Shown: one piece after another, positions 5,875 through 60,476 of the stretch
Layout of the letters: each line of letters starts with the position of its first letter
Position numbering within the stretch: position 1 is the first letter of the stretch
Source: Minisyncoccota bacterium
GTDB lineage: Bacteria; Patescibacteriota; Minisyncoccia; UBA6257; JAGOQP01
Direction: 5' to 3'
NCBI GenBank assembly: GCA_041661795.1
Contig: JBAZTS010000001.1
Coordinates: forward strand, 124,161-188,160
DNA length: 64,000 bases
The notes under the pieces: model-generated
Told to the model about the DNA's origin: nothing
Seen by the model: the letters and a program-made list of their open reading frames with translations, nothing else
Databases searched by the model: none
Position numbers and translations under genes: made by a program

Positions 5875-6567
5875 CTAAATACCTCTCCACTCTTCTATCT
5901 TTTTATGGTCTCCTGACAAAAGAACCTTAGGAACAGACCATTTTCGGCCCGAGGCCGATCCGCCTTGGGCGGACTTTCCATCGGGGCTAAAAACTTCTGG
6001 ACGAGTATAGGTTGGATAACTTCCCTTTAATTCTTCTAAGGATTCTTTTTTCCCAAGAACTCCAGGAATAAATCTGGAAACCGAATCAACTAAGACCATC
6101 GCCGGTATCTCGCCGCCAGAAAGAATAAAATCCCCTATTGATATTTCTTCATCGGCAATATGTTTGGCCACCCTTTCATCAACTCCTTCATATCTGCCAC
6201 AAATTAAAATTAAATTGTTATACTTAGACAATCTTTGAGCAATTTTATTATCAAACTTTTTACCTCTTGTTGAAAACAAAATCACTCTTATCCTAGTAGT
6301 AGAACTTCGTTCACTATGGGACTTCGCTTTGCTCGTTTTTGACTTTATATTTTCCACTGCTTTATATATTGGTCCAACTTTTAAAACCATCCCCGGTCCT
6401 CCCCCAAAAGGACTATCATCTATCTTTTTATGCTTGTCCTTAGCCCATTTTCTGATGTTATATGTTTTTATAGATATCAATTTGTTTTTCTGAGCGCGCC
6501 CTAAAATTGACGATTTAAAATAATCTTCAAAAACATCGGGAATAGCTGAAAGAATGTGAAAAATCAT
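5875..6567 (-). CDS. trmD: tRNA (guanine37-N1)-methyltransferase
   Basis: TrmD hallmarks: N-terminal MIFHILSAIPDVFEDYF and SPFGGGPGMVL. It also contains an in-frame GC-rich palindromic insert at 5945..5974 (see findings). Confidence 0.85.
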   Translation of the reverse strand: MIFHILSAIPDVFEDYFKSSILGRAQKNKLISIKTYNIRKWAKDKHKKIDDSPFGGGPGMVLKVGPIYKAVENIKSKTSKAKSHSERSSTTRIRVILFSTRGKKFDNKIAQRLSKYNNLILICGRYEGVDERVAKHIADEEISIGDFILSGGEIPAMVLVDSVSRFIPGVLGKKESLEELKGSYPTYTRPEVFSPDGKSAQGGSASGRKWSVPKVLLSGDHKKIEEWRGI

Positions 6568-10949: not shown

Positions 10950-11720
10950 CTATCTTGATTTAATATTATTGTACTTACCTATAAAAGTCAACCGGTGAAT
11001 TTTGGAAGGACCGTGTTTTTTGATGGCCTCTATGTGCTTTTTGGTTCCATATCCCTTGTGATGGTCAAATCCGTATTGAGGATATTTTTTGTGCAATTTG
11101 GTGATGTATTTGTCTCGGGTAATTTTAGCAACAATAGAAGCCAGAGACACAGCCGGAACTTTTTCATCGGCTTTGGGGAAATTTTTGAAAGTTAAATTCG
11201 TATGTTTATATTTCTTTATACTTTCATATTTCTGAATATTTATTTTTAAACTCCCATCAGCAATCACTTCACCATTACATTTAGAACGATCGTTCAAAAT
11301 GTAATGGTAGGATAATTTGTCTGACTTTCTCAATCTTTTCATTTTAACCATTGTTTTCTCAAATGCTTTTTGGGCGGCTAAATTACAAGCATTGCTGATA
11401 TTAATACCATCAATCTTTTTCTCGTTAACCCAAGCGCAGGAAAAAATAATTTTATTTTTCTTCACCCAAGAGAACCACTTGTATCTTTGCTTTTCTGAAA
11501 GATTTTTAGAGTCGGCCAGTTTGCGCGGATAATTGTATACCGTATACCGCCTGCCTGCCGGTAGGCATGGTATACCGTAATGCTTATACAGTTTTGATAA
11601 TTTTCTGTTTAAATCAAAAGATAAAATCACACATCCAACATAAACTCTACCGGCCAGTGGTCCCCGCCCGACCTCGTCTATACCGATAACATAGTCAATT
11701 TTTTTCATATATAACGTCAA
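10950..11720 (-). CDS. rnhB: ribonuclease HII (carries an in-frame repeat-derived insertion)
   Basis: IGIDEVGRGPLAG motif and downstream DSK. A ~20-aa insertion (KHYGIPCLPAGRRYTVYNYPRK) is encoded by the GTATACC/GCCTGCC palindromic element at 11535..11578. The start is probably the Met near 11708. Confidence 0.8.
   Translation of the reverse strand: MTLYMKKIDYVIGIDEVGRGPLAGRVYVGCVILSFDLNRKLSKLYKHYGIPCLPAGRRYTVYNYPRKLADSKNLSEKQRYKWFSWVKKNKIIFSCAWVNEKKIDGINISNACNLAAQKAFEKTMVKMKRLRKSDKLSYHYILNDRSKCNGEVIADGSLKINIQKYESIKKYKHTNLTFKNFPKADEKVPAVSLASIVAKITRDKYITKLHKKYPQYGFDHHKGYGTKKHIEAIKKHGPSKIHRLTFIGKYNNIKSR
11535..11578. repeat. GTATACC-GTATACC-GCCTGCCTGCCGGTAGGC-ATG-GTATACC palindromic repeat element embedded in rnhB
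   Basis: Seen in sequence: two tandem GTATACC heptamers, an imperfect GC-rich inverted repeat, and another GTATACC. The same heptamer recurs at the pilin-LamG loci. Confidence 0.6.
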
Positions 11721-27106: not shown

Positions 27107-27265
27107 CAATAAAATATTTAATCAGAGATTAGATATTTTATTTGGGCCACAGGAATCGAATAGAGGTGGGTCGGAGGACGCTTAGTCCTTCGTGTAGGAA
27201 ATTATTCAAAACCGAGGATTTTGAAAGAGTCCGCCCTGGGCGGACGATGTGAGATTCCCCGTAGG
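27107..27265 (+). repeat. structured spacer ending in a second copy of the tRNA-Ala 3' terminus (TCCCCGTAGGTCCAC at 27248..27262); contains a GTCCGCC-CTG-GGCGGAC hairpin
   Basis: A 15-bp direct repeat of the tRNA-Ala 3' end, seen in sequence. The embedded GC-rich hairpin at 27224..27242 resembles the dispersed CCGCC/GGCGG element. Confidence 0.5.
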
Positions 27266-29205: not shown

Positions 29206-31644
29206 TTAAGGTTTAAGAACTATATTAATTACTTTGCCGGGAATAAATATAATTCTGTCAATTCTCAAATCTTTAAGATAAGACGATAATTTACTGTCTT
29301 TTTTTATAATAACCAAAACTTCTTCCTGATTGGGACTTCCCGAAAGTTTTAACAATCCCCTTGTCTTTCCGTTAAATTGGACGGCTATATTGGATAATTG
29401 ATGACCCGTTATTTTTTTGTTAAATTTAGGCCATTTTTCCAAATGCACTGATTTACACGGATGAAGTTTCTGCCAGATTTCTTCAGTAATAAAAGGAGCA
29501 AAAGGAGAAAGCAGTTTTATAAAAGTTTCAAACTGGGACACGGAAACATTATTAGATTTTTCCATGTTATTAAAAAGAATCATCAGAGAGCTGATAGCTG
29601 TATTGTAGTTTAAGCTATCTATATCGTCGCTCACCTTCTTTACCGTCTGATTTATCATGACTTCAATTCCTTTCTCATGAGTCCCATGCTTTAAGCTGTG
29701 CGATTTAGAAAATTTCCAAACTCTATCTAAAAACCTATAAATACCAATAATGGCCTGGTCCCTAAAATCACCTCCCTGTTCAAATGGAGCTAAAAACATT
29801 AGATAAGTTCTTAATGTGTCGGCTCCAAATCTTTTTATATACTCATCGGGGTTTATAATATTTCCCTTGGACTTGGACATTTTGGCTCCTTCTTTAATAA
29901 TCAGTCCGTGGGCTCTGAATTTTTTTACCGGCTCTTGAAAATCAACCAATTTTAAATCGTGTAAAGCCATAGCCAAAAACCTAATGTACAAAAGATGAAG
30001 AACCGAATGTTCCGCTCCTCCTATGTACATATCAATAGGCAACCATCGCTTTGCGATGTTGCTAAATTCCAAACTCCCAACTCCCAACTTCCAACTAGAA
30101 AAAACCATTAAATAGCCAATATAGTACCAAGCCGAATCAAGAAATGTATCAGAAACATCTGTTTCTCTTGTGGCCTTGCCTCCGCATTTAGGACATTTAG
30201 TTTCATAAAAAGATTTAACAAAAGCCAAAGGAGATTTTCCTTTGCCTTGAGGCCTAAAATCTTTAACAACAGGGAGTTTGATTGGTAAATCTTTTTCTGG
30301 AACTGGTTGCCAGGCGCATTTTTTACAAAAAATCATGGGAATCGGAGGACCCCAATATCTTTGACGAGAGATGAGCCAATCACGAAGGTGAAATTGAGAT
30401 GTTATTTTCCCACCAACTAATTTGGTTATTTCAATTATAGCTTTTTTAGAATCCATTCCGTTAAACTTTCCGGAATTAATTAAATGTTCTTTATCATCTA
30501 AAACTTGCACAGAAACAAGTTTATATTTTTTGGCAAATTCAAAATCCCTTTGATCATGCGCTGGAACGGCCATAATAGCTCCCATTCCGTAAGAACCCAA
30601 AACATAATCAGCTACAAAAATAGGAATCTCTTTCTTAGTAGCTGGATTCATTGCTTTTATACCTTTTAATTCAACTCCCGTTTTTTCTCCACCCTCTCTT
30701 ATTCTTTCATCTCTTGATTTTGACTTCGCTTTATTCACATAACTTTCTATCTCTTTCCAGTTTTTCACCTTAGACCCTAAATCCTTAATCCTATCCCCTA
30801 ACAATTCATGCTCTGGAGATAAAACTATGTAAGTAGCTCCAAATAATGTATCTGGACGAGTGGTAAAGATACGTATATCGTATGCCGTATTTCGTATTTT
30901 AAAATCAATCAGGGCTCCGTCACTGCGTCCTATCCATTCTTTTTGAGCAATTTTAACTTTATCCGACCAATCTAATTTATCTATGTTATTTAATAATTTA
31001 TCGGCATAATCGGTTATTTTAAAAAACCATTGCTCCAATTTCTTTCTAATGACTTTAGTAGAACATCTTTCACATTCACCCCGCTCAATATCTGAGCGAG
31101 GCTCGCCTTTTCGAGATGAGGCGGCAGAAATTACCTGTTCATCTGCCAGTACAGTTTTACAGGAAGGACACCAATTAACTTCTTGTTTCTTTCTATAAGC
31201 TAACCCCTTTTTAAACATCTGGACAAATATCCATTGTGTCCATTTATAATAATTTGAATCATACGTTTCAAGTTTTTCTTTCCAAGCAAAACCGTTGCCC
31301 ATTGTTTCAAGTTGTTTATAGAACTTTTTTTCTGAAATTTTTGCCTGTTTAGCCGGATGGATCCCTACTTTAATGGCATAGTTTTCCGAATGAATACCAA
31401 AACCATCAAGCCCAATTGGCTCAAAAACATCGTATCCTTCCATTCTTTTCTTCCTCCCATAAATATCGGAGCCAACAAAAGCATACATATTTCCAACGTG
31501 AAGACCTTCTGCCGAAGGATAGGGAAACATCATTAAATTATAAAATGGCAATTTTGCTCTCAAAACAGAGGGTTCATACACCCCATTTTTCTTCCAAATT
31601 TGATTCCATTTTTTCTCTATTTTTTTAAAGTCAAAGCTATTCAT
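29206..31644 (-). CDS. leuS: leucyl-tRNA synthetase
   Basis: Class I HIGH-like motif (HVGNMYAF) and KMSKS (KMSKSKGN). Editing and Zn domains present. The start is taken as MNSFDFKKIEKKWNQ. Contains an in-frame CTCCCAA x3 heptamer array at 30074..30094. Confidence 0.9.
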   Translation of the reverse strand: MNSFDFKKIEKKWNQIWKKNGVYEPSVLRAKLPFYNLMMFPYPSAEGLHVGNMYAFVGSDIYGRKKRMEGYDVFEPIGLDGFGIHSENYAIKVGIHPAKQAKISEKKFYKQLETMGNGFAWKEKLETYDSNYYKWTQWIFVQMFKKGLAYRKKQEVNWCPSCKTVLADEQVISAASSRKGEPRSDIERGECERCSTKVIRKKLEQWFFKITDYADKLLNNIDKLDWSDKVKIAQKEWIGRSDGALIDFKIRNTAYDIRIFTTRPDTLFGATYIVLSPEHELLGDRIKDLGSKVKNWKEIESYVNKAKSKSRDERIREGGEKTGVELKGIKAMNPATKKEIPIFVADYVLGSYGMGAIMAVPAHDQRDFEFAKKYKLVSVQVLDDKEHLINSGKFNGMDSKKAIIEITKLVGGKITSQFHLRDWLISRQRYWGPPIPMIFCKKCAWQPVPEKDLPIKLPVVKDFRPQGKGKSPLAFVKSFYETKCPKCGGKATRETDVSDTFLDSAWYYIGYLMVFSSWKLGVGSLEFSNIAKRWLPIDMYIGGAEHSVLHLLYIRFLAMALHDLKLVDFQEPVKKFRAHGLIIKEGAKMSKSKGNIINPDEYIKRFGADTLRTYLMFLAPFEQGGDFRDQAIIGIYRFLDRVWKFSKSHSLKHGTHEKGIEVMINQTVKKVSDDIDSLNYNTAISSLMILFNNMEKSNNVSVSQFETFIKLLSPFAPFITEEIWQKLHPCKSVHLEKWPKFNKKITGHQLSNIAVQFNGKTRGLLKLSGSPNQEEVLVIIKKDSKLSSYLKDLRIDRIIFIPGKVINIVLKP

Positions 31645-31713
31645 TTTACTAAGAGAGATGACTACGGATAATAACAAATTTATACCGATAATGTAAAACA
31701 GTCCTTTGTCGGT

Positions 31714-45395: not shown

Positions 45396-45424
45396 AAAAT
45401 AAAACCCCTTTATAGAGGGGGTTT
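45396..45424 (-). terminator. intrinsic terminator after rplY (CCCCT-loop-AGGGG, T-rich flanks)
   Basis: AAAACCCCTTTATAGAGGGGGTTTTATTTTG seen in sequence. Usable on both strands. Confidence 0.45.
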
Positions 45425-46083
45425 TATTTTGCTTGTTCTGGAGTGGTAGCAGGGGCTTCTTGTCCTCCCTCTTGAGGTTGACCTTCTATTGGCTCAGCAC
45501 CTTCTACAACAGGAGGAGCTTCAACAACCTCTTCTTTCATCTGTTCAGCTATGGTGACAATAACACTTTCCAACTCATCAAGAATTTCTATTTTATCGGA
45601 TATTTTAATATCTTTGATATGTAAGCTTTGATGCAGATCAATAAGAGAAGATAAATCAATTTCTATAAATTGTGGCAAATCAGATGGCAGGGCTTCTACT
45701 TCTATCTTTTCAAGAGCCTTAACTAGGGTGCCTCCTTTTTCTTTAACAGCCGGAGCTTCTCCAATGAATTTTATAGGGATGTCGGCGGTTATCTTTTTAT
45801 CCATATTAACTTTATAAAAATCAATACTGATAAAACTATCGTTAAGCGGATTTCTTTGAACATTATAAATAAGAACCGGAACGGTTTTTCCTTCTATAAC
45901 AACGTTAACAATGCTGTTTTCTCCAGCTTCTTTAAATACCTTAGAAAATTCTTTTACGGGAACAGACAGGTGAATATTCTCAAATCCCTGTCCGTAAATT
46001 TCTGCCGGAACAAGCCCTTGGTCTAAAAGGGTTTCTAATCTTTTTCCTAATATTTCTCTTTTTTGAGCTATTATTTCTAACAT
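45424..46083 (-). CDS. rplY: 50S ribosomal protein L25 / general stress protein Ctc form
   Basis: N-terminal L25 beta-barrel region (LEIIAQKREILGK...). Acidic C-terminal extension typical of Ctc. Confidence 0.75.
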   Translation of the reverse strand: MLEIIAQKREILGKRLETLLDQGLVPAEIYGQGFENIHLSVPVKEFSKVFKEAGENSIVNVVIEGKTVPVLIYNVQRNPLNDSFISIDFYKVNMDKKITADIPIKFIGEAPAVKEKGGTLVKALEKIEVEALPSDLPQFIEIDLSSLIDLHQSLHIKDIKISDKIEILDELESVIVTIAEQMKEEVVEAPPVVEGAEPIEGQPQEGGQEAPATTPEQAK

Positions 46084-46180
46084 ATGAAATCGTTAACCGT
46101 ATACAGTATACAGGTATATAAGATAAACGAAAAAACAAGATAAATCAAGCTATTTATGCATCCGTTATTTTTTATAATTT

Positions 46181-47503
46181 TTAGTATAAAGAATATTTAC
46201 CGTCTAAATATTTTTCTACACTTTCGCGTTCATTGTCAGAAAGAGCTCTGTTATATACTATAATTTCGGCCATTTGTGAATTAGCACTGAGTGTTCCACC
46301 AATTGTATAAATTTCGTCGGTAAGATTAGGAACGGCGTTACAAGAATCACAGGTATAGAAAGACCCAATTGTTCCGTTATATCTCAATATTGGGTCCCTA
46401 TATCTATCTCCACTATTATTTGTCACAGAAAAAATACCGAAATTACTATAATCAAACCCCGTATTTCTCATGACTGAATATCCATCGGTATAACCGATAA
46501 CTCCATCAAAAGGGCCATTCCTATAATAAAGAATCCTTGTTGTTCCTCCTGCTCCAGAAGAAGATCCAAAGGAAAAGAATTTTACCCCATCTTCATACCA
46601 AGTCAAACTTTTTCCAACAAAGAACACTGAAGAAGCTCCAGAGCCACTTACTCCCAAAGCTCCTCCAGCCAAAGAATCATTTGCTCCGTCAAATTGGACT
46701 ACCGACTTTCCATTAACCTGGTTGGTTTTAAAAAGCGGTTTATAACTTACATTACTTTGTATGGCATCATTATTGTTTCCAGATAGATCATCCCAAGTTG
46801 AAATTGGATCATTATTAGAAAGATTTAGGGAGTCGGCTTTAAGCCATAATTTTGGGTCATTAGGTGACAAAAAAAGATTCATGCCAGCTTCAAATCTGAC
46901 GGGATCTCCACCTCCGTCACCAGAAGCAACTTCTTTTATCTTTTTTTCTGATTCCAAAAGAGCGGTCAAAATATATCCACCATTACTATCCACAGCATAA
47001 GCATAAAAATTAGATGTGGATACGGCATTGGTTTCATCTATAGGAAGATCAGATATAAAAGGTCCAACCGATGTTATTCTGGTAAAATCAATTGGAATCC
47101 AACCCGTTCCATCAACATTTTTAAAGGTTGAAGTAGGGGCACATTTGTAAGACCACCCAGAAATTGCGGGAAGTCCTAAGTTTGCGCATGTTGTAGAAGA
47201 ATCGGGAATGGAAATATATAAAGTATTAACGCTACCCAAAGACAAATTACCCAGTCCCGAGTATTTATATTTTTCAACGGCAATTTTAAGGTTGTTTAAA
47301 TCCGATATTCTTCTGGCATCCTTGCTTTCTTGTATAAAAGAAACTGGATTTAAAATAATAACTGTGGCCGCCGAAAGAACGATTATAATACCAACTGTTG
47401 TTAAAAGCTCACCCATAGTGAAGGAACGGGTATCGTATACCGTATACCGTATACCGGGATAGAGCAAATGCTTCTTAAGTTTAGATTTTATAAATTCAAT
47501 CAT
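46181..47503 (-). CDS. prepilin-type N-terminal domain protein with C-terminal LamG domain (mosaic paralog A)
   Basis: Leader MIEFIKSKLKKHLLYPGIRYTVYDTRS, then FTMGELLTTVGIIIVLSAATVII. LamG C-terminus (AEIIVYNRALSDNERESVEKYL). The leader contains a GTATACC x3 heptamer array. Confidence 0.65.
   Translation of the reverse strand: MIEFIKSKLKKHLLYPGIRYTVYDTRSFTMGELLTTVGIIIVLSAATVIILNPVSFIQESKDARRISDLNNLKIAVEKYKYSGLGNLSLGSVNTLYISIPDSSTTCANLGLPAISGWSYKCAPTSTFKNVDGTGWIPIDFTRITSVGPFISDLPIDETNAVSTSNFYAYAVDSNGGYILTALLESEKKIKEVASGDGGGDPVRFEAGMNLFLSPNDPKLWLKADSLNLSNNDPISTWDDLSGNNNDAIQSNVSYKPLFKTNQVNGKSVVQFDGANDSLAGGALGVSGSGASSVFFVGKSLTWYEDGVKFFSFGSSSGAGGTTRILYYRNGPFDGVIGYTDGYSVMRNTGFDYSNFGIFSVTNNSGDRYRDPILRYNGTIGSFYTCDSCNAVPNLTDEIYTIGGTLSANSQMAEIIVYNRALSDNERESVEKYLDGKYSLY
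47430..47456. repeat. tandem heptamer array (GTATACC)x3, 21 nt, in-frame inside the 5' coding region of the pilin-LamG gene
   Basis: GTATC-GTATACC-GTATACC-GTATACC seen directly. It encodes ...PGIRYTVYDTRS... in the leader peptide. Confidence 0.75.
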
Positions 47504-47532
47504 TTCTTCTGTATTCGGTATACGACGCCCAG

Positions 47533-48441
47533 TTATACGCCACTTAGTATTTTTATTTTATCCGACACCACTTTTTCCACTTCATGAACTACTTCGGGAA
47601 GTATCTTATAAGGAACGATTTCGTTGGGACGAGATAAAAGAGCCAAATCCAAACCTCTCTTCCAGGCAGTTCTAAGTTCTGTATTGATATGAACAATAGA
47701 TACTCCCGCCAAAACAGCCAGTTTTAATTGTTCGTTAGAAACCCCAGACGCCCCATGTAAAACCATGGGAATATCAATCATGCTTTTTATCTCTTTTATT
47801 CTCTCTACATCAAGATTGGGGTCGGAAGCATCCAAAAACATTCCATGCAGAGTCCCTAGTGCCGGCGCCAGTAAATCTATTCCCGTTTCTTCTATAAATC
47901 TTTTGGCATCTTCGGGTTTAGTCAAATCTTCTTTTTTAACAGAAACACCTTCTGGGATTCTATCTAAAATAACTGACCCGGAACCTATATATCCAAGCTC
48001 CCCTTCCACCAAAACATCGCAATTATTTTTCTGGTTATATTCTTTGACAAAATTAACAACCTCTTTTGTCTCTCTTATGTTTTCTTCAATATTTTCTTTT
48101 CCGGCATCAAACAAAACTGCGTCAAATCCGGCCTCAACCGCTTCTTTTATTTTACCAAAAGAATGCGTATGGTCAGCGTTAAGAAAAATAGGAAAATTTC
48201 CGCCCGAGGCGGATCCGTCTATGATGGAAAATTCTTCTCTTAAACTTTTTATAAGAGCCACAACTTGTTTTATGCCTATAAAATCTCTTTCCCCTTCTGA
48301 AACTCCTATAATAACGGGCTGTTTCAAAGCGTAAGCAGCATCAAAAATTCCCTTAAGAGCCGCCAAATCGGAGATATTAAAATGCCCAACAGCTACATTG
48401 TGTAACTGAGCATCTTTTATTATTTCTCGCAATGTTTGCAT
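47533..48441 (-). CDS. fba: class II fructose-bisphosphate aldolase
   Basis: Class II FBA/TBP aldolase family motifs (NVAVGHFNISD, LNADHTHSF, HGASG). Contains an in-frame GC-rich palindromic insert at 48200..48217. Confidence 0.8.
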   Translation of the reverse strand: MQTLREIIKDAQLHNVAVGHFNISDLAALKGIFDAAYALKQPVIIGVSEGERDFIGIKQVVALIKSLREEFSIIDGSASGGNFPIFLNADHTHSFGKIKEAVEAGFDAVLFDAGKENIEENIRETKEVVNFVKEYNQKNNCDVLVEGELGYIGSGSVILDRIPEGVSVKKEDLTKPEDAKRFIEETGIDLLAPALGTLHGMFLDASDPNLDVERIKEIKSMIDIPMVLHGASGVSNEQLKLAVLAGVSIVHINTELRTAWKRGLDLALLSRPNEIVPYKILPEVVHEVEKVVSDKIKILSGV

Positions 48442-48448
48442 GGACTTA

Positions 48449-49720
48449 TTATATACTAATATATCCTTTAGTGATATTTTCTTTAGTCATTTCTTCCATT
48501 TTCCCCTCACCAAAATAGGAAGAAAATATTTTATTCCATAGTGACTCCTGATGATGATAAAGATACTTAATCATTTCAACCTTTTTAACTAAAGCCATTG
48601 AGGTATCTATAAGATTAAAGCTGACTAGAACTTCTATCCCGGTATCAGTAGAAAAATAATCGCCTATCCAATTCAGCCCCGCCCAGAAAGCAAAATCTCC
48701 ATCCAAGCCATGTTTTTTTGCCAACTCAACAATATTCTTTTCTGCTTTCTCCCAATGCAAGGCCTCCGGGTTAACGTGAGGATAAAAAAGACGCCAGTCG
48801 TTTTCGTCGTCTTTGGCTAAATATCTTTGAGTAACCATCCAATCTCCTTCCTTTATCAGTTCCTTAGAATCAATTACGTCGCCTCTTAAAAGAGAGGAAA
48901 AATCTTCAAAAAAGTTATGATTTATTATCTTTTTTCCGCCCGAGGCGGATCCGCCTATGGCGGAGAATACATCCGAATAAAAAGATATTTCATTAACATA
49001 ATGGAATAAGAGAGCCACGGTTCTTATGAGTTCTCCGGGGATATCCAAGGATATAGGAATGACAAATATTATTCCTAATTCTTTTAAGTGGCTAATGTTG
49101 TGATATTTTTTTTCAACAAATTTCTGAGCCAACTCTTTCCATCTGTCGCTGATAGAAATGATTTCTATTGGCCTTATCTCAAAATCAGCGCTGGACAAAT
49201 CTTGATAATGCCTGATAAAAAACATATTTATCCATTCAGCTCCTTCTACAAATCTAAGGGCGCTGGCTACTTCCCTCCAGTCCTCTTTTTTGAGCATCTC
49301 TGAAACGCTTTGATAACCAAGTGCGGAAAGAATCTTTTTAGGCGGTTCTTTTTCCAATATTTCTATAAACTTGTCTTTTTTTATAAAAAATCCTTCTTTT
49401 TTACCAACCACCAGATTAACCGCCTCAATTATTTTTTGGCATCCACCAACTTCAAAATGACATGGATTTCCTAAAACCGAATTGAGAATTTTATCGTCCT
49501 TGTTTATTTTTCCTATAAGAGCGTCAAATATTTGTTTGGCGCTGGAATCTTTTTTGAGACCAAGAAAGCTTAGTTTTTCCAGCATTATTGCCTCATTGTC
49601 AGAGCAAATTTCATCAAGCATTCTGGCTTTATTGGTAATTTTGCCAAGCTTATCCTGAACGTTTTTTATAACATCTTTATCGGTTCTTAAAATTCTTGCA
49701 ATTTTTTCGTAGGATTCCAT
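48449..49720 (-). CDS. hypothetical protein (423 aa) sandwiched between two pilin-LamG genes
   Basis: No motif recognised. Carries the longest copy of the GC-rich palindromic element (48936..48963), encoding AIGGSASGGK. Confidence 0.5.
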   Translation of the reverse strand: MESYEKIARILRTDKDVIKNVQDKLGKITNKARMLDEICSDNEAIMLEKLSFLGLKKDSSAKQIFDALIGKINKDDKILNSVLGNPCHFEVGGCQKIIEAVNLVVGKKEGFFIKKDKFIEILEKEPPKKILSALGYQSVSEMLKKEDWREVASALRFVEGAEWINMFFIRHYQDLSSADFEIRPIEIISISDRWKELAQKFVEKKYHNISHLKELGIIFVIPISLDIPGELIRTVALLFHYVNEISFYSDVFSAIGGSASGGKKIINHNFFEDFSSLLRGDVIDSKELIKEGDWMVTQRYLAKDDENDWRLFYPHVNPEALHWEKAEKNIVELAKKHGLDGDFAFWAGLNWIGDYFSTDTGIEVLVSFNLIDTSMALVKKVEMIKYLYHHQESLWNKIFSSYFGEGKMEEMTKENITKGYISI

Positions 49721-49729
49721 AAATTTATT

Positions 49730-51055
49730 TTAATATAAAGCGTATTTGTTATTTAAATATTTTTCTACGCTTTGACGTTCTCCTGTGGTTAATGTGTGAT
49801 CATAAAGAATAATTTCAGCAATTTGTACGTTAGAAAAACCTTCCACATTACTAGCTCCTTGCGAAGCTCCGATTAAATATTCGTCGTCGTCAGTATTTGA
49901 AGTACCAGCACAACCATCAGCAGCGTTGTAACTATAAGCCGCTCCGTTGACATAGAGACCGCCAGAACAGTTAGTTCCTCCAGTGGAATCTTGTTGATCA
50001 ATTAATTTAAAAGAAGTTTGATCAAATCCTTCTCCGAATTTAATCCAAGCACCTCCCATCGATCTCCAGAAACTCAACGGAGCAGTTCTAAATCCGAAAT
50101 ATTTAAATTGTCCGTCTGCTCCGGTTGAAGAACCTAAATAAACAACAGCCACAGGATCTCCATACCAACTCAAACTTTTAGCTACTATAAATAAAGTTTG
50201 ACCTCTAGTACCAGAAATTCCTGTTGGTCCTCCAATTAGATAATTATCAATTCCATCAAATTGAACTACCGAATTTCCATTAACTTGATTGGTTTTTAAG
50301 ATCGGCTTATAACTTACATTACTTTGTACGGCATTATTATTATTTCCAGACATATCGTTCCAAGTTGAAATTGGATCATTATCAGAAATCCCCAAGGAAT
50401 CCGCCTTTAACCATAATCTGGGACCATTAGATACTAAGGAGAGGTCAGTTCCTTTTTCAAATCTAATTGGATCTCCACCTCCGTCATTAGAAGCAGCAGA
50501 AATAAATTTATTTGATTCTATAAGAGCTGCTAGTTTCCAAGATCCTCCTGGAATATACGTATAATAAAGTCCATCTGAAGCAGAGTTAGTGGGATCAATA
50601 GGAAGAGATGAAAGTTGAATAACGGATTGAGTAGTAAAATTGACAGGAATCCAACCTGTTCCATCTGTCTTGATAAGGTTAGTTATAGTAACACAATTAT
50701 ATATGTATCCCGTAGGTAAAGAAGGAAGACCAAGATTGTCGCATGTTGCTGAAGAATCAGGGATGGAGACATAGACGGTAAGAGATGTTCCAAAGGAAAG
50801 GGTGGGGTCTATGACTTCTAGGTTCTGGAGGGAGTTATTGAGTAAAGAGAGGTCTTGCATTCTACGAGAGTCCCTAGTTTGAGCAAGATAATCAGCAGGG
50901 TTGAGGACGATAATGACTGCGGTTGTGAGTACGGCAAGAATACCTATAACAACGAGGAGTTCTACAAGGGTGAAGGAACGGGAATTGTATACCGTAGACC
51001 GTATACAGGGATAAGAAAAATACTTCTTTAGTTTGGATTTAATAGATTTATTCAT
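49730..51055 (-). CDS. prepilin-type N-terminal domain protein with C-terminal LamG-like domain (mosaic paralog B)
   Basis: Leader MNKSIKSKLKKYFSYPCIRSTVYNSRS, then FTLVELLVVIGILAVL. The N-terminal third is near-identical to the 62398..63693 protein. The middle segment is near-identical to the 46181..47503 protein. Confidence 0.65.
   Translation of the reverse strand: MNKSIKSKLKKYFSYPCIRSTVYNSRSFTLVELLVVIGILAVLTTAVIIVLNPADYLAQTRDSRRMQDLSLLNNSLQNLEVIDPTLSFGTSLTVYVSIPDSSATCDNLGLPSLPTGYIYNCVTITNLIKTDGTGWIPVNFTTQSVIQLSSLPIDPTNSASDGLYYTYIPGGSWKLAALIESNKFISAASNDGGGDPIRFEKGTDLSLVSNGPRLWLKADSLGISDNDPISTWNDMSGNNNNAVQSNVSYKPILKTNQVNGNSVVQFDGIDNYLIGGPTGISGTRGQTLFIVAKSLSWYGDPVAVVYLGSSTGADGQFKYFGFRTAPLSFWRSMGGAWIKFGEGFDQTSFKLIDQQDSTGGTNCSGGLYVNGAAYSYNAADGCAGTSNTDDDEYLIGASQGASNVEGFSNVQIAEIILYDHTLTTGERQSVEKYLNNKYALY
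50987..51007. repeat. degenerate heptamer array GTATACC-GTAGACC-GTATACA in the 5' coding region of pilin-LamG paralog B
   Basis: Seen in sequence. It encodes ...PCIRSTVYN.... Further GTATAC motifs lie in the promoter region 51061..51090. Confidence 0.65.
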
Positions 51056-51088
51056 TTTTACGGTATACGATATACTGTATTTAGTATA

Positions 51089-52090
51089 CTATTTTCTCAA
51101 TATTCTTGCCGCTTCTTCTGGAAAAACAGAGTTTATTTCAACTCCTGTTCCTAATTCAAATCCAGCAGAAATATTGGACTTGGGAACAATCTCAATGTGC
51201 CAATGGTAGCGAGAGTGTTTATTTTTTTCAAAAACCGGGGCGGTATGAATAAAGAAATTATAATCAGGGTCATTAATATTTTTTCTGATTAAATTCAGAA
51301 TTTTTTGTAAAATTTGTGTGAGAAATGACAAGTTTTTTAAAGAAGCGTCTTCAAAATAAGCCGAGTGTTTTAAAGGAAAGAGATTAATCTGATACGGTTC
51401 TTTGGAAGCAAACGGAGTAAAAGCAATAAATTCTTTATTTTTAAAAACTATTCTTTTTTTATCTTTAATTTCGGTTTTAATAATTTCACAATGAATGCAA
51501 CGATGATATTTTCTATTATATTCAGATGAAGAATCTAAAGATCTTTTGATGGTATGAGAAACTACCGGTAAGGCCAAAATCTGATAGTGAGGATGAAAGA
51601 TTGAAGCTCCGGCTTGTGCTCCCCAATTATGAAATAAAGAAATATATTTAACTCTTTTATCTATAGCTAATTGTCTGTATCTTTTTTGCAAAGCCAAAAG
51701 AACATTTAAGGCCTGCTTGTCACCCAAATCAGGAAACGACTTAAAATGATTTCTGGTAATAAGCAGATCATGATGTCCAAACCCAGAAACTGTTTCATAT
51801 ATTCCCCTTTTTTTTATTTTAACGCTAACCTTAGGACCATCAAAAACGGCCGGATATTTATTTTCAAGAACTTGAAGTTCCCACTTTTCCAACGGCAGTT
51901 TTTCCGGAAACCAAAAATATGGATATCTATTACCATTTTTTTGAGGGTTCTCAAACGGACAAGAGTTTACAGGAGAAGGTTTCCTCTTAGGAGTTATTTT
52001 CTTTTTGAGTTCATTGGGTCTTTTGGAGCGCTTAGAATTAACCAAGACCCATTCTCCAGTTGTCACGTGATAGCGAAGTTCTGAATTCAT
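51089..52090 (-). CDS. galT: HIT-superfamily nucleotidyltransferase, galactose-1-phosphate uridylyltransferase-like
   Basis: N-terminal Zn-site-like NSCPFE. HIT-type FHPHYQI (HxHxQ) active-site motif. 333 aa. Family-level inference. Confidence 0.5.
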   Translation of the reverse strand: MNSELRYHVTTGEWVLVNSKRSKRPNELKKKITPKRKPSPVNSCPFENPQKNGNRYPYFWFPEKLPLEKWELQVLENKYPAVFDGPKVSVKIKKRGIYETVSGFGHHDLLITRNHFKSFPDLGDKQALNVLLALQKRYRQLAIDKRVKYISLFHNWGAQAGASIFHPHYQILALPVVSHTIKRSLDSSSEYNRKYHRCIHCEIIKTEIKDKKRIVFKNKEFIAFTPFASKEPYQINLFPLKHSAYFEDASLKNLSFLTQILQKILNLIRKNINDPDYNFFIHTAPVFEKNKHSRYHWHIEIVPKSNISAGFELGTGVEINSVFPEEAARILRK

Positions 52091-59254: not shown

Positions 59255-59380
59255 ATTTTTCTGCTAAAAAATCCCTGCCTGACGGCAGGCAGGCCTCTAG
59301 CTCAGCCCGCCGGCTTCCGCATGGCCCCAAAACCTTTTCCGAAACTAAAACCATGCGGCCGATTGGGACACATGGTTTTA
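59255..59380. other. GC-rich structured intergenic element (nested hairpins CCTGCC-TGAC-GGCAGG and CCGCATGG...CCATGCGG, plus AAAACCATG-N15-CATGGTTTT)
   Basis: Seen in sequence. Local GC is much higher than the flanking AT-rich DNA. The overlapping 70-aa track ORF has no support. Confidence 0.4.
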
Positions 59381-59420: not shown

Positions 59421-60476
59421 TTACATTGACATTATGATTCTCTGATTAACAAAGTAGAAAGAAGAAATCTTAAATGAATTTCCAAGATCGTCAATCTTCC
59501 AGTTTTTTCCACCATCGGAACTGGTAAACATCTTTTTGTCCGAAACAACGTAAATTTTACCGTTGTTTAATCCCATGGCGTCTATGGTTTTCTTCTGAAT
59601 GGGAATTTCTTTCATAAGAGAATAGTTTCCTCCTCCATCTAAGCTTTTAAAAATACCCTCTTCGTTAAGAACATACATAATCCCATTTGAATCAAATTGT
59701 AAAAGAGAAACTTTTGGTGAAGAAAAGAATCCTCCGCCCGGTAAGTTTATTTTTTCAAATTTTCCTTCCAAGCTTTGACTCTTTCCGATATTTCCAGATT
59801 TGAAAAGAAGATAAAATCCAAGTCCATTTGGCTTGTAAATTTTAAGAACTGGAGAAGAAAAAACATTAACCACTCTGGATTGTCCGTTCTTAAGATTTAA
59901 GTGAATAATCTGACCGTTAGAAACAGCCAAATATAAGCTATTACCTTGCTGATACATGTCATAAACTGCTTCATTGTCAAAATCTATAAGTTTTTCAAGA
60001 TGAAAGAAGTAATCATAGGTTCTATAAACGACTCCTCTTCCTCCAGAAAAAACAGATATAAAATAATCCTCTCCATTAGAAGAAGCTGGTAATATCTTAA
60101 AGATTATTGAAGAAGCGTTAATTTCGTAATTAGAAGATGTGAAGCTATTCCAGGTGAGTCCTCCGTCACGACTGATAAAAAGCCCTTGGTCGGTAGAGGC
60201 GTACATCAAATTTTCTTTAGGATATCCGTCTATGTCAAAAACTTTAATATCATTGTTTTTGTTTAAAACCGCCTTGTGAATATTTTTAAAATCGTCATAA
60301 GAAACCAAAAACTGTCCGACCCCATCGGACCAGTTGGTTTCGGCAGCAGCGAAAACAGAGGCAAAAAGTCCATTGCCGTTAGAAATCCCCAGAGCGCTGT
60401 TATTTCCAGAAAGTCCAAAAAAAATTCCAACAACAGCCACTATTATTAAAACTAAGAACATGATGTTATCTGACAT
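59421..60476 (-). CDS. membrane-anchored BNR/Asp-box repeat beta-propeller protein
   Basis: N-terminal TM helix. Repeated S-x-D-G-G-x-T/N-W Asp-box motifs (SRDGGLTW, SLDGGGNY, SSDGGKNW). Confidence 0.55.
   Translation of the reverse strand: MSDNIMFLVLIIVAVVGIFFGLSGNNSALGISNGNGLFASVFAAAETNWSDGVGQFLVSYDDFKNIHKAVLNKNNDIKVFDIDGYPKENLMYASTDQGLFISRDGGLTWNSFTSSNYEINASSIIFKILPASSNGEDYFISVFSGGRGVVYRTYDYFFHLEKLIDFDNEAVYDMYQQGNSLYLAVSNGQIIHLNLKNGQSRVVNVFSSPVLKIYKPNGLGFYLLFKSGNIGKSQSLEGKFEKINLPGGGFFSSPKVSLLQFDSNGIMYVLNEEGIFKSLDGGGNYSLMKEIPIQKKTIDAMGLNNGKIYVVSDKKMFTSSDGGKNWKIDDLGNSFKISSFYFVNQRIIMSM

Follow-up and report, generated by a model that had tools for sequence, protein, structure and literature searches.

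How does a GC-rich palindrome, bordered by copies of the heptamer GTATACC, come to lie in frame inside rnhB, the gene for RNase HII, in a bacterium of the Candidate Phyla Radiation (CPR)? The locus belongs to a 64,000-nt stretch of DNA from a member of the Paceibacterota (the window in what follows, its genome being abbreviated as W), and a preliminary description of it had taken heptamers and palindrome together as a mobile or templated short-repeat element able to land inside genes. We consider that the rnhB insert is probably an intragenic copy of a 20-nt GC-rich palindromic repeat, a REP- or MITE-like insertion (repetitive extragenic palindrome and miniature inverted-repeat transposable element, respectively) that is dispersed across phyla and phage-like contigs.

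The rnhB product matches the RNase_HII domain (Pfam PF01351, E = 1.6e-28) in two stretches split at the insert, is 100% identical to the protein P0001 of a metagenome-assembled genome (MAG) annotated as 'ribonuclease HII, Candidatus Paceibacterota', has matches in PDB and possesses the DE..D..D residues as well as the GRG and DSK motifs of RNase HII; D11, E12, D66/S67, D100 and D151 are invariant in an alignment of 28 RNase HII sequences. The insert separates the DEVGRGP catalytic segment from the DSK motif; at this place E. coli RNase HII (PDB 7uwe) has 8 residues and the W protein 34. On the plus strand, positions 11535-11583 read GTATACC GTATACC G CCTGCCTGCCGGTAGGCATG GTATACC GTAATGC, with two heptamers at 11535-11548, the single G at 11549, the palindrome at 11550-11569 and a third heptamer at 11570-11576. 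The minus strand is read through in frame as Y-G-I-P-C-L-P-A-G-R-R-Y-T-V-Y-N-Y, the palindrome part being CLPAGR, so that the letters, the frame, the Pfam match and independent assemblies (see below) all bear out the in-frame element first described. An AlphaFold model with a mean predicted local distance difference test score (pLDDT) of 84 for the whole protein falls to ~55 over residues 41-60, the values at 46-49 and 53-55 lying under 50, and represents residues 43-66 as coil; the stretch is thus predicted to be a low-confidence, disordered surface loop. The 44-nt element folds as a DNA hairpin (-9.4 kcal/mol, z = -2.2) and a 76-nt segment of the rnhB mRNA folds at -22.1 kcal/mol (z = -2.0), as anticipated in the preliminary description. 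Because GGTATACC is self-complementary, the stem can be extended by pairing of 11570-11577 with 11535-11541 and 11542-11548. The heptamer array to the left of the palindrome reads GGTATAC GGTATAC AATTATC on the minus strand, and a T-run follows the palindrome on neither strand. Translational bypass of the byp or T4 gene 60 type was also considered for the insert and rejected: the frame is open, no stop codon is present, and a hop between the direct repeats would shift the frame, since these are 28 nt apart.

A chimeric palindromic junction or another assembly or sequencing artefact might produce such a structure, and many of the palindrome matches reported below do come from short-read MAGs, but we regard this explanation as extremely improbable. 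The identical W sequence is found in independent assemblies from other samples (L005 from ENA and L006 from Logan), so that the insert is not an assembly artefact. Independent samples and pipelines likewise agree for the ortholog that shares the palindrome (L001-L004), the reading frame is preserved by the insert in several genes, and isolate genomes carry the palindrome too.

We compared the DNA of six relatives codon by codon, in addition to the 28-sequence protein alignment. Loop length is highly variable among the RNase HII of Paceibacterota; a long loop is the trait of a clade of them, and most orthologs are devoid of the palindrome. On its minus strand the W loop reads TAC GGTATAC C-ATGCCTACCGGCAGGCAGG-C GGTATAC GGTATAC AATTATC, that of the ortholog P0002 (DNA L001) TAC AAAATAC C-TTGCCTACCGGCAGGCAGG-C AAAATAC AAAATAC AAAATAC, and that of P0007 (DNA L007) TAT AAAATAC CGAATAC AAAACAT AAGATAT. 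Between W and L001, nucleotide identity of the rnhB genes is 64% and protein identity without the loop 66%, and the 19-mer TGCCTACCGGCAGGCAGGC, identical 19/19 at the same site, is the longest exact stretch that the two genes have in common; all six hairpin codons are identical, whereas conserved residues in the rest of the gene have identical codons in only 47% of cases (P ~0.01). The heptamers flanking the palindrome, AAAATAC in L001 and GGTATAC in W, change in concert in each lineage. The W heptamer array aligns position by position with AAAATAC x3 of L001, and the L001 counterpart of the 8-nt direct repeat is CAAAATAC; the AAAATAC arms cannot pair, and the stem has no extension in L001. 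Since the 19 nt are identical while the heptamers differ, the GC hairpin is the conserved piece of the element. W and L001 also have exactly the same layout in length, the 20-nt core, the 8-nt duplication and the 14 nt of two heptamers adding up to 42 nt, that is, 14 codons. Compared with L001, exactly 21 nt are missing from L007, which has no GC hairpin but retains degenerate heptamers. The insertion of ~20 aa announced for the region between GIDEVGRGP and DSK consequently has to be qualified: codons K42-K63 do lie there, but relative to this nearest 'empty' ortholog only 21 nt, or 7 aa, are inserted, the long loop itself being clade-wide.

The same loop varies in other ways. In P0009 (DNA L306), a protein 85% identical to P0002 and encoded within highly similar flanking DNA, the whole 75-nt loop is absent. 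The contrast between L001 (10001-10678; 42 aa, with the hairpin) and L306 (3001-3693; 17 aa, 'PKNPKNIFKKTNAPAK'), whose short loop is nearly identical to those of distant clade members, suggests a replacement by recombination. In P0022 and P0019, another GC hairpin, CTCCGCC-CAA-GGCGGAC, occupies the same place; it is of the type of a second hairpin family of the window that we describe below. From these alignments, the rnhB loop is a permissive, indel-prone site for GC hairpins.

Could the segment be retained for the sake of the protein, as an ordinary lineage-specific loop in which the palindromic DNA is incidental? The peptide IPCLPAGR is indeed common to W and P0002, and a G-to-A variant that both genes carry relative to the master form of the palindrome (see below) is synonymous in the rnhB frame (CTG to CTA, both Leu). 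However, the loop is predicted to be disordered, its adjoining residues are unconserved, the codons and not only the residues are identical, L007 is without exactly this segment, and identical DNA occurs in non-coding contexts and in a tRNA, all of which makes this explanation very unlikely. Selection on nucleic acid structure, in the form of an mRNA hairpin acting in translation or decay, an RNase III site, a DNA cruciform or a protein-binding site, would account for the 19 nt, synonymous positions included, that remain identical in such divergent orthologs, as well as for the lengthening of the W stem by palindromic heptamers to a fold of -22.1 kcal/mol; moreover, nusB and rnc follow rnhB in every relative compared. 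Against this, most orthologs, among them the close relative of L001, are devoid of the hairpin, L001 has no stem extension, unrelated genes contain the sequence too, in both orientations and in all frames, and no relevant Rfam family was found either for the locus (E-value mode) or for the whole window (gathering threshold). We therefore consider selected structure unlikely. If the insert is instead a copy of a dispersed palindrome, as we favour, it would be neutral to the RNase HII protein.

A further argument for a dispersed repeat comes from the distribution of the palindrome. Its master form is CCTGCCTGCCGGCAGGCAGG, a perfect 20-nt palindrome, (CCTG)2CC|GG(CAGG)2, with abutting arms that form an 8-bp stem and a 4-nt loop. 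An exact scan for the 19-nt core in one genome per GTDB species (596 Gb) detected it in at least 120 genome stretches, compared with ~4 expected by chance according to our own arithmetic for this amount of sequence. Its carriers include Bacteroidota, Chloroflexota, Saccharibacteria and many other CPR lineages, Omnitrophota, delta-proteobacterial MAGs of Desulfobacterota type and WOR-3, together with two isolate genomes (L025 and L050; Olivibacter oleidegradans CCM 7765 and Thermobacterium salinum TK19130), and these cultured carriers open the way to experiments. In the copies listed, the base preceding the 19-mer nearly always completes the 20-nt palindrome. IMG/VR contains ~42 sites with the perfect palindrome, 14 with the one-mismatch variant that W carries and one with a double variant, which identifies the perfect form as the master. 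By contrast, the plasmids of PLSDB (7.3 Gb) contain no perfect copy, and the distribution is therefore restricted and not universal.

Within the window, two copies are found at up to 3 mismatches, where none would be expected. The one outside rnhB had already been noticed as a similar hairpin; it is a true member of the family, although its coordinates are 59274-59293 and not 59262-59282. The terminator scan gave an 8-bp stem and a 4-nt loop followed by GATTTTTTAG, the T-rich tail on the minus strand being GATTTTTT. It is the only copy in the window to combine a GC-rich hairpin with a T-run, on the minus strand, and it looks like an intrinsic terminator. A GC-rich intergenic stretch, cctctagctcagcccgccggcttccgcatggcccc, adjoins it at 59294-59330 and matches no Rfam family.

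Elsewhere, the palindrome is found in frame in the genes of valyl-tRNA synthetase (Saccharibacteria), trigger factor (Staskawiczbacteria), aspartate-semialdehyde dehydrogenase (Asd), tryptophanyl-tRNA synthetase, a histidine kinase (Ferruginibacter) and a GSDH-like protein, in either orientation and in differing frames; in the tryptophanyl-tRNA synthetase it corresponds to an exact 7-residue gap against PDB 1yi8. The peptides CLPAGR, LPAGRQ, LPTGRQ, PAYRQAG and CLPVGR in MAG proteins are accordingly markers of the palindrome DNA and not of protein homology, and they can mislead alignments and gene calls. A tRNA shows the palindrome as a discrete unit: at positions 2239-2330 of the IMG/VR contig 3300033148_008720 (L165), a 92-nt tRNA-Met(CAT) carries the palindrome in its variable loop, between AGG and TC, and a canonical tRNA of 72 nt results when exactly these 20 nt are deleted. 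In L142, L172 and L176, the palindrome lies in tRNA-like contexts without ARAGORN call, apparently tRNA fragments, and L165 is the only clean example. The palindrome has also inserted into itself, one copy lying at the centre of another in L012, L023, L063, L163 and L167, and many copies occupy the tips of longer, locus-specific palindromes (L024, L077, L073 and L037, the last being terminator-like with a T-run). One 29.5-kb IMG/VR contig with 60% GC (L161, L168 and L169) contains six perfect palindromes embedded in repeat units of ~60-70 nt with other widespread GC-rich motifs (peptides GWGTRK / MGHP); two of these units are inverted, ~1.4 kb apart, around a phage-like ORF (open reading frame).

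What surrounds the palindrome was examined at ~190 non-redundant sites and compared with random positions in the same loci. Exact inverted repeats of at least 7 nt between the two flanks occur at 19% of the sites and 3% of the controls, and exact direct repeats of at least 7 nt at 14% and 4%, respectively. Immediate flanking duplications of 7-14 nt were found at 6/193 sites (0.02% of the controls), namely 14 nt in L149, 8 nt in L143 and L001, and 7 nt in L159, L035 and L050. Tandems of period 7 within 35 nt accompany 7.0% of the sites (0.7% of the controls), and a further measure, period-7 repeats visible only when the core is removed and the flanks joined, gave 3.8% versus 0.3%. For period 8 the corresponding values are 1.1% versus 0.1% and 2.2% versus 0.1%; in the same comparison, periods 5, 6 and 9-12 showed no enrichment beside the palindrome. 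To judge from these unrelated genomes, direct repeats of 7-8 nt made of local sequence are a signature of the family, the tandems being enriched about ten-fold. Because such repeats are generally enriched beside the palindrome, the GTATACC arms of W are a locus-specific companion of their copy. Apart from this, flanking sequences are unrelated among more than 190 other copies, with a purine at -1 and a pyrimidine at +1 as the only preference. A target preference for ATAC or TA was rejected: TA precedes the core at 6.5% of sites versus 5.7% in the background. A scan of viral sequences for palindromes bordered left and right by ATAC yielded 0 matches.

The heptamer has its own distribution in the window, with 12 occurrences of GTATACC against 2.7 expected, and the preliminary description was right that it recurs in the leaders of two pilin genes. 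The exact 14-mer GTATACCGTATACC is present only in rnhB and in the leader of pilin 1 (gene 46181-47503, minus strand), that of pilin 2 (49730-51055, minus strand) differing by one base; rnhB and the pilin 2 leader have ~17/19 nt in common (TACGGTATACAATT..CCG), including the tail past the last heptamer, and the RYTVY / STVY peptide of rnhB recurs in both leaders, as had been stated. The pilin 1 array has its inverted partner in the 29-nt spacer that precedes the start codon (47510-47523), and a long-range stem encloses this codon in the RNA (-30.8 kcal/mol, z = -3.5); the pilin 2 RNA folds at -21.9 kcal/mol (z = -3.5).

These likenesses speak for the composite proposed at first, in which GTATACC, GC hairpin and GTATACC form one mobile or templated element that is also present in the pilin leaders, and so do the lengthening of the hairpin stem by the W arms and the abundance of (ATACNNN)3 in the window (9 matches versus 0.13 expected, located in frame in leuS, in the two pilin leaders and in the 5' spacers of the pilin genes). 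However, the pilin copies carry heptamers without the GC palindrome, L001 has the same palindrome between non-pairing AAAATAC arms, and the unrelated flanks of the more than 190 other copies do not fit a composite. At least 120 metagenome contigs and 7 viral ones, over a wide GC range, contain arrays of (GGTATAC)3 or longer, and among the matches listed no array adjoins the palindrome or a pilin gene; the pilin homologs of other genomes have short leaders (..NSFTLVELL) without heptamer-coded stretch. We thus hold the composite to be quite unlikely. A short-repeat family that lands in genes does exist, and rnhB contains a copy of it, but the travelling unit would be the 20-nt GC palindrome and not the GTATACC composite. 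The GGTATAC arrays are a generic, probably expansion-prone tandem repeat, since the unit contains the palindromic hexamer GTATAC. A metagenome scan for length variants of the rnhB loop of this species gave 0 matches.

Other features of the pilin region deserve mention. The pilin stems (47425-47535 and 50975-51090, minus strand) are 10-15 bp long, pair the spacer array with the leader array and enclose the start codon and the first ~17 codons, and they could serve in translational control, as an RNA processing site or as a slippage-prone switch. The N-terminal 159 aa of pilin 1 have a best match of 51% in a collection of 5.8 billion proteins, in which the W rnhB product is nonetheless present, and the prepilin cleavage site has Ser instead of Gly at -1 (..RS|FT..), as in several homologs. 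A further GTATAC-type array (CGTATACAGTATACAGGTATATAAG) lies at 46099-46118, between pilin 1 (stop at 46181) and an L25/Ctc-like gene (45424-46083).

Taken together, these observations suggest that the palindrome lands, or persists, where an extra hairpin can be tolerated; such sites would be disordered protein loops, the variable loop of a tRNA, the tips of longer palindromes or terminator-like hairpins and the centre of the palindrome itself. The rnhB copy sits in an indel-prone surface loop and would simply be translated as CLPAGR. Its 8-nt direct repeat and extra heptamers are locus-specific flanks, produced probably by target duplication or by hairpin-induced slippage, with footprints of insertion and excision cycles as another option, and their copy number brings the total to a multiple of three (20 + 8 + 14 = 42 nt). 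Several points weigh against an insertion of this kind. Only two copies occur within the 64 kb searched, and no transposase or mobilising gene lies between the paired copies of L031 or L080, where ftsH and metabolic genes are found. Most copies, including that of the tRNA-Met, have no flanking duplication, for which reason no single classical transposition mechanism fits. A hairpin-aware null with ~14 independent positions lowers the enrichment of the core, although it does not abolish it. The copies of W and L001 occupy the same site and carry the same G-to-A variant, which would also suit a single old insertion retained through selection on the peptide or the hairpin. Finally, a model of local flanks does not predict that the rnhB heptamer is also that of the pilin leaders, with its AATT..CCG tail; this identity, together with the pilin 2 tail, is too specific for chance on the sequences compared, and it is left unexplained by our model, gene conversion between the arrays or a shared sequence preference being possible sources.

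A bolder version of the insertion model would see in CCTGCCTGCCGGCAGGCAGG an autonomous-looking 'nano' mobile DNA, the smallest known, spreading across phyla and phages by means of a trans-acting enzyme or a replication or repair route. It would prefer single-stranded loops (hairpin tips, the tRNA loop, its own centre) and leave or induce duplications of 7-8 nt, the GTATACC arrays being footprints or by-products. We find this proposal conceivable but, as a whole, doubtful. In the literature we found no description of the palindrome sequence, of the peptides that it encodes or of the concept.

Table 1. Features of the window that bear on the rnhB insert and its relatives.
Feature	Position	Strand	Basis or remark
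rnhB (RNase HII, 252 aa), host gene	10950..11708	minus	ORF list and Pfam PF01351
Codons K42-K63 (KHYGIPCLPAGRRYTVYNYPRK), translated insert in variable surface loop	11520..11585	minus	Codon table, AlphaFold, PDB gap
Heptamer array, degenerate GATAATT then GTATACC x2	11528..11548	plus	TRF period 7, 2.1 copies
8-nt direct repeat GTATACCG abutting palindrome on left	11542..11549	plus	Partner 11570-11577
Copy of the 20-nt GC palindrome, CCTGCCTGCCGGTAGGCATG	11550..11569		2 mismatches from master CCTGCCTGCCGGCAGGCAGG
8-nt direct repeat GTATACCG abutting palindrome on right	11570..11577	plus	Partner 11542..11549
GTATACC x3 in leader-coding region of pilin 1	47435..47455	plus	No GC palindrome
Degenerate GTATACC array in leader-coding region of pilin 2	50987..51007	plus	Inverted partner 51062-51075
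Second copy of the palindrome	59274..59293	minus	1 mismatch; intergenic, downstream of ORF 59421-60476 and upstream of frr

Two other sets of repeats were observed in the window. A second GC-hairpin family, (A/G)TCCGCC-nnn-GGCGGA(T/C), is found at 48200-48217, 48936-48966, 5945-5976 and 27229-27246, often paired with CCGCC-CGA-GGCGG. Two of its copies lie inside ORFs and both give the peptide GSASGG, in ORF 47533-48441 (..IIDGSASGGNFPIF..) and in ORF 48449-49720 (..AIGGSASGGKKII..). The leuS gene (29206-31677, minus strand) contains two in-frame heptamer arrays, at 30068-30096 and 30872-30899, in variable regions of the enzyme; TCCCAAC x4 encodes ..SSWKLGVGSLEF.. and ATACGNN x4 encodes ..KIRNTAYDIRI...

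Among known systems, the heptamers first call to mind simple sequence repeats (SSRs), of which heptameric ones have been noted as abundant (PMC4692102). The GTATACC arrays resemble the short heptamer tandems of cyanobacterial short tandemly repeated repetitive (STRR) sequences and of slipped-strand contingency repeats, with a unit that is not a multiple of three, and the location of the pilin arrays in the leader-coding 5' end is reminiscent of phase-variable surface genes. They differ from contingency repeats in that they have only 2-3 copies and form inverted pairs around the pilin start codon, and no copy-number polymorphism was observed in them.

The Rickettsia palindromic elements (RPEs), reportedly described by Ogata and colleagues in 2000 as inserted in frame in housekeeping genes and tolerated in surface loops, are among the nearest likenesses to the rnhB insert, but their sequence is unrelated to the 20-nt palindrome. 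RPEs measure ~100-150 bp (RPE-4 and RPE-6 being shorter) and are restricted to Rickettsia. The GC clusters of fungal mitochondria, the PstI palindromes of Neurospora and the 'byp' elements are likewise very short, GC-rich palindromes; they have spread through AT-rich genomes and lie inside or beside genes for tRNA, rRNA and proteins. They are organellar and have other sequences. The 'byp' elements are skipped by ribosomes, whereas the rnhB insert keeps the frame and has no stop codon.

With MITEs, the palindrome shares two inverted arms, the lack of coding capacity and an occasional duplication resembling that of a target site. However, its 20 nt are far below the size of MITEs (~50-500 bp), its arms abut without any internal sequence, no parent insertion sequence (IS) is known and none with these ends was seen; the immediate repeats of 7-14 nt at 6 of the 193 sites spare the tRNA-Met copy. 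The resemblance to REPs and to REPINs, their paired form, is that of a short (20-40 nt) GC-rich stem-loop that lies mostly at gene ends, is often terminator-like and has some copies translated in ORFs. For REPs, too, some copies inside ORFs are translated, many of them in replication and repair genes (Di Nocera et al. 2013, PMC3733652). The palindrome fits their size range of 20-40 nt for imperfect palindromes at its lower edge, but the unrelated flanks of more than 190 copies show no conserved GTAG or CGTC tetranucleotide tag, and no ORF for a REP-associated tyrosine transposase (RAYT, of IS200/IS605 type) lies between the inverted copies of L031 or L080, the loci examined. The palindrome is perfect, with abutting arms, has two copies in 64 kb and recurs as the same 20-mer in many phyla and phage contigs, whereas REPs are specific to a species or genus. 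On these sequence features, we classify it as a REP- or MITE-like intragenic palindromic repeat and not as a member of the REP/RAYT system.

Compared with the repeats of Rickettsia and of REP-rich Proteobacteria, the palindrome differs in that it is only 20 nt long, has the same sequence in distant phyla and in phage-like contigs, is without known REP tags or transposase and can occupy a tRNA as well as essential genes (RNase HII, aminoacyl-tRNA synthetases, trigger factor). Were it truly mobile, it would push the lower size bound of mobile DNA further down and be a source of innovation in the protein loops and tRNA arms of reduced CPR genomes.

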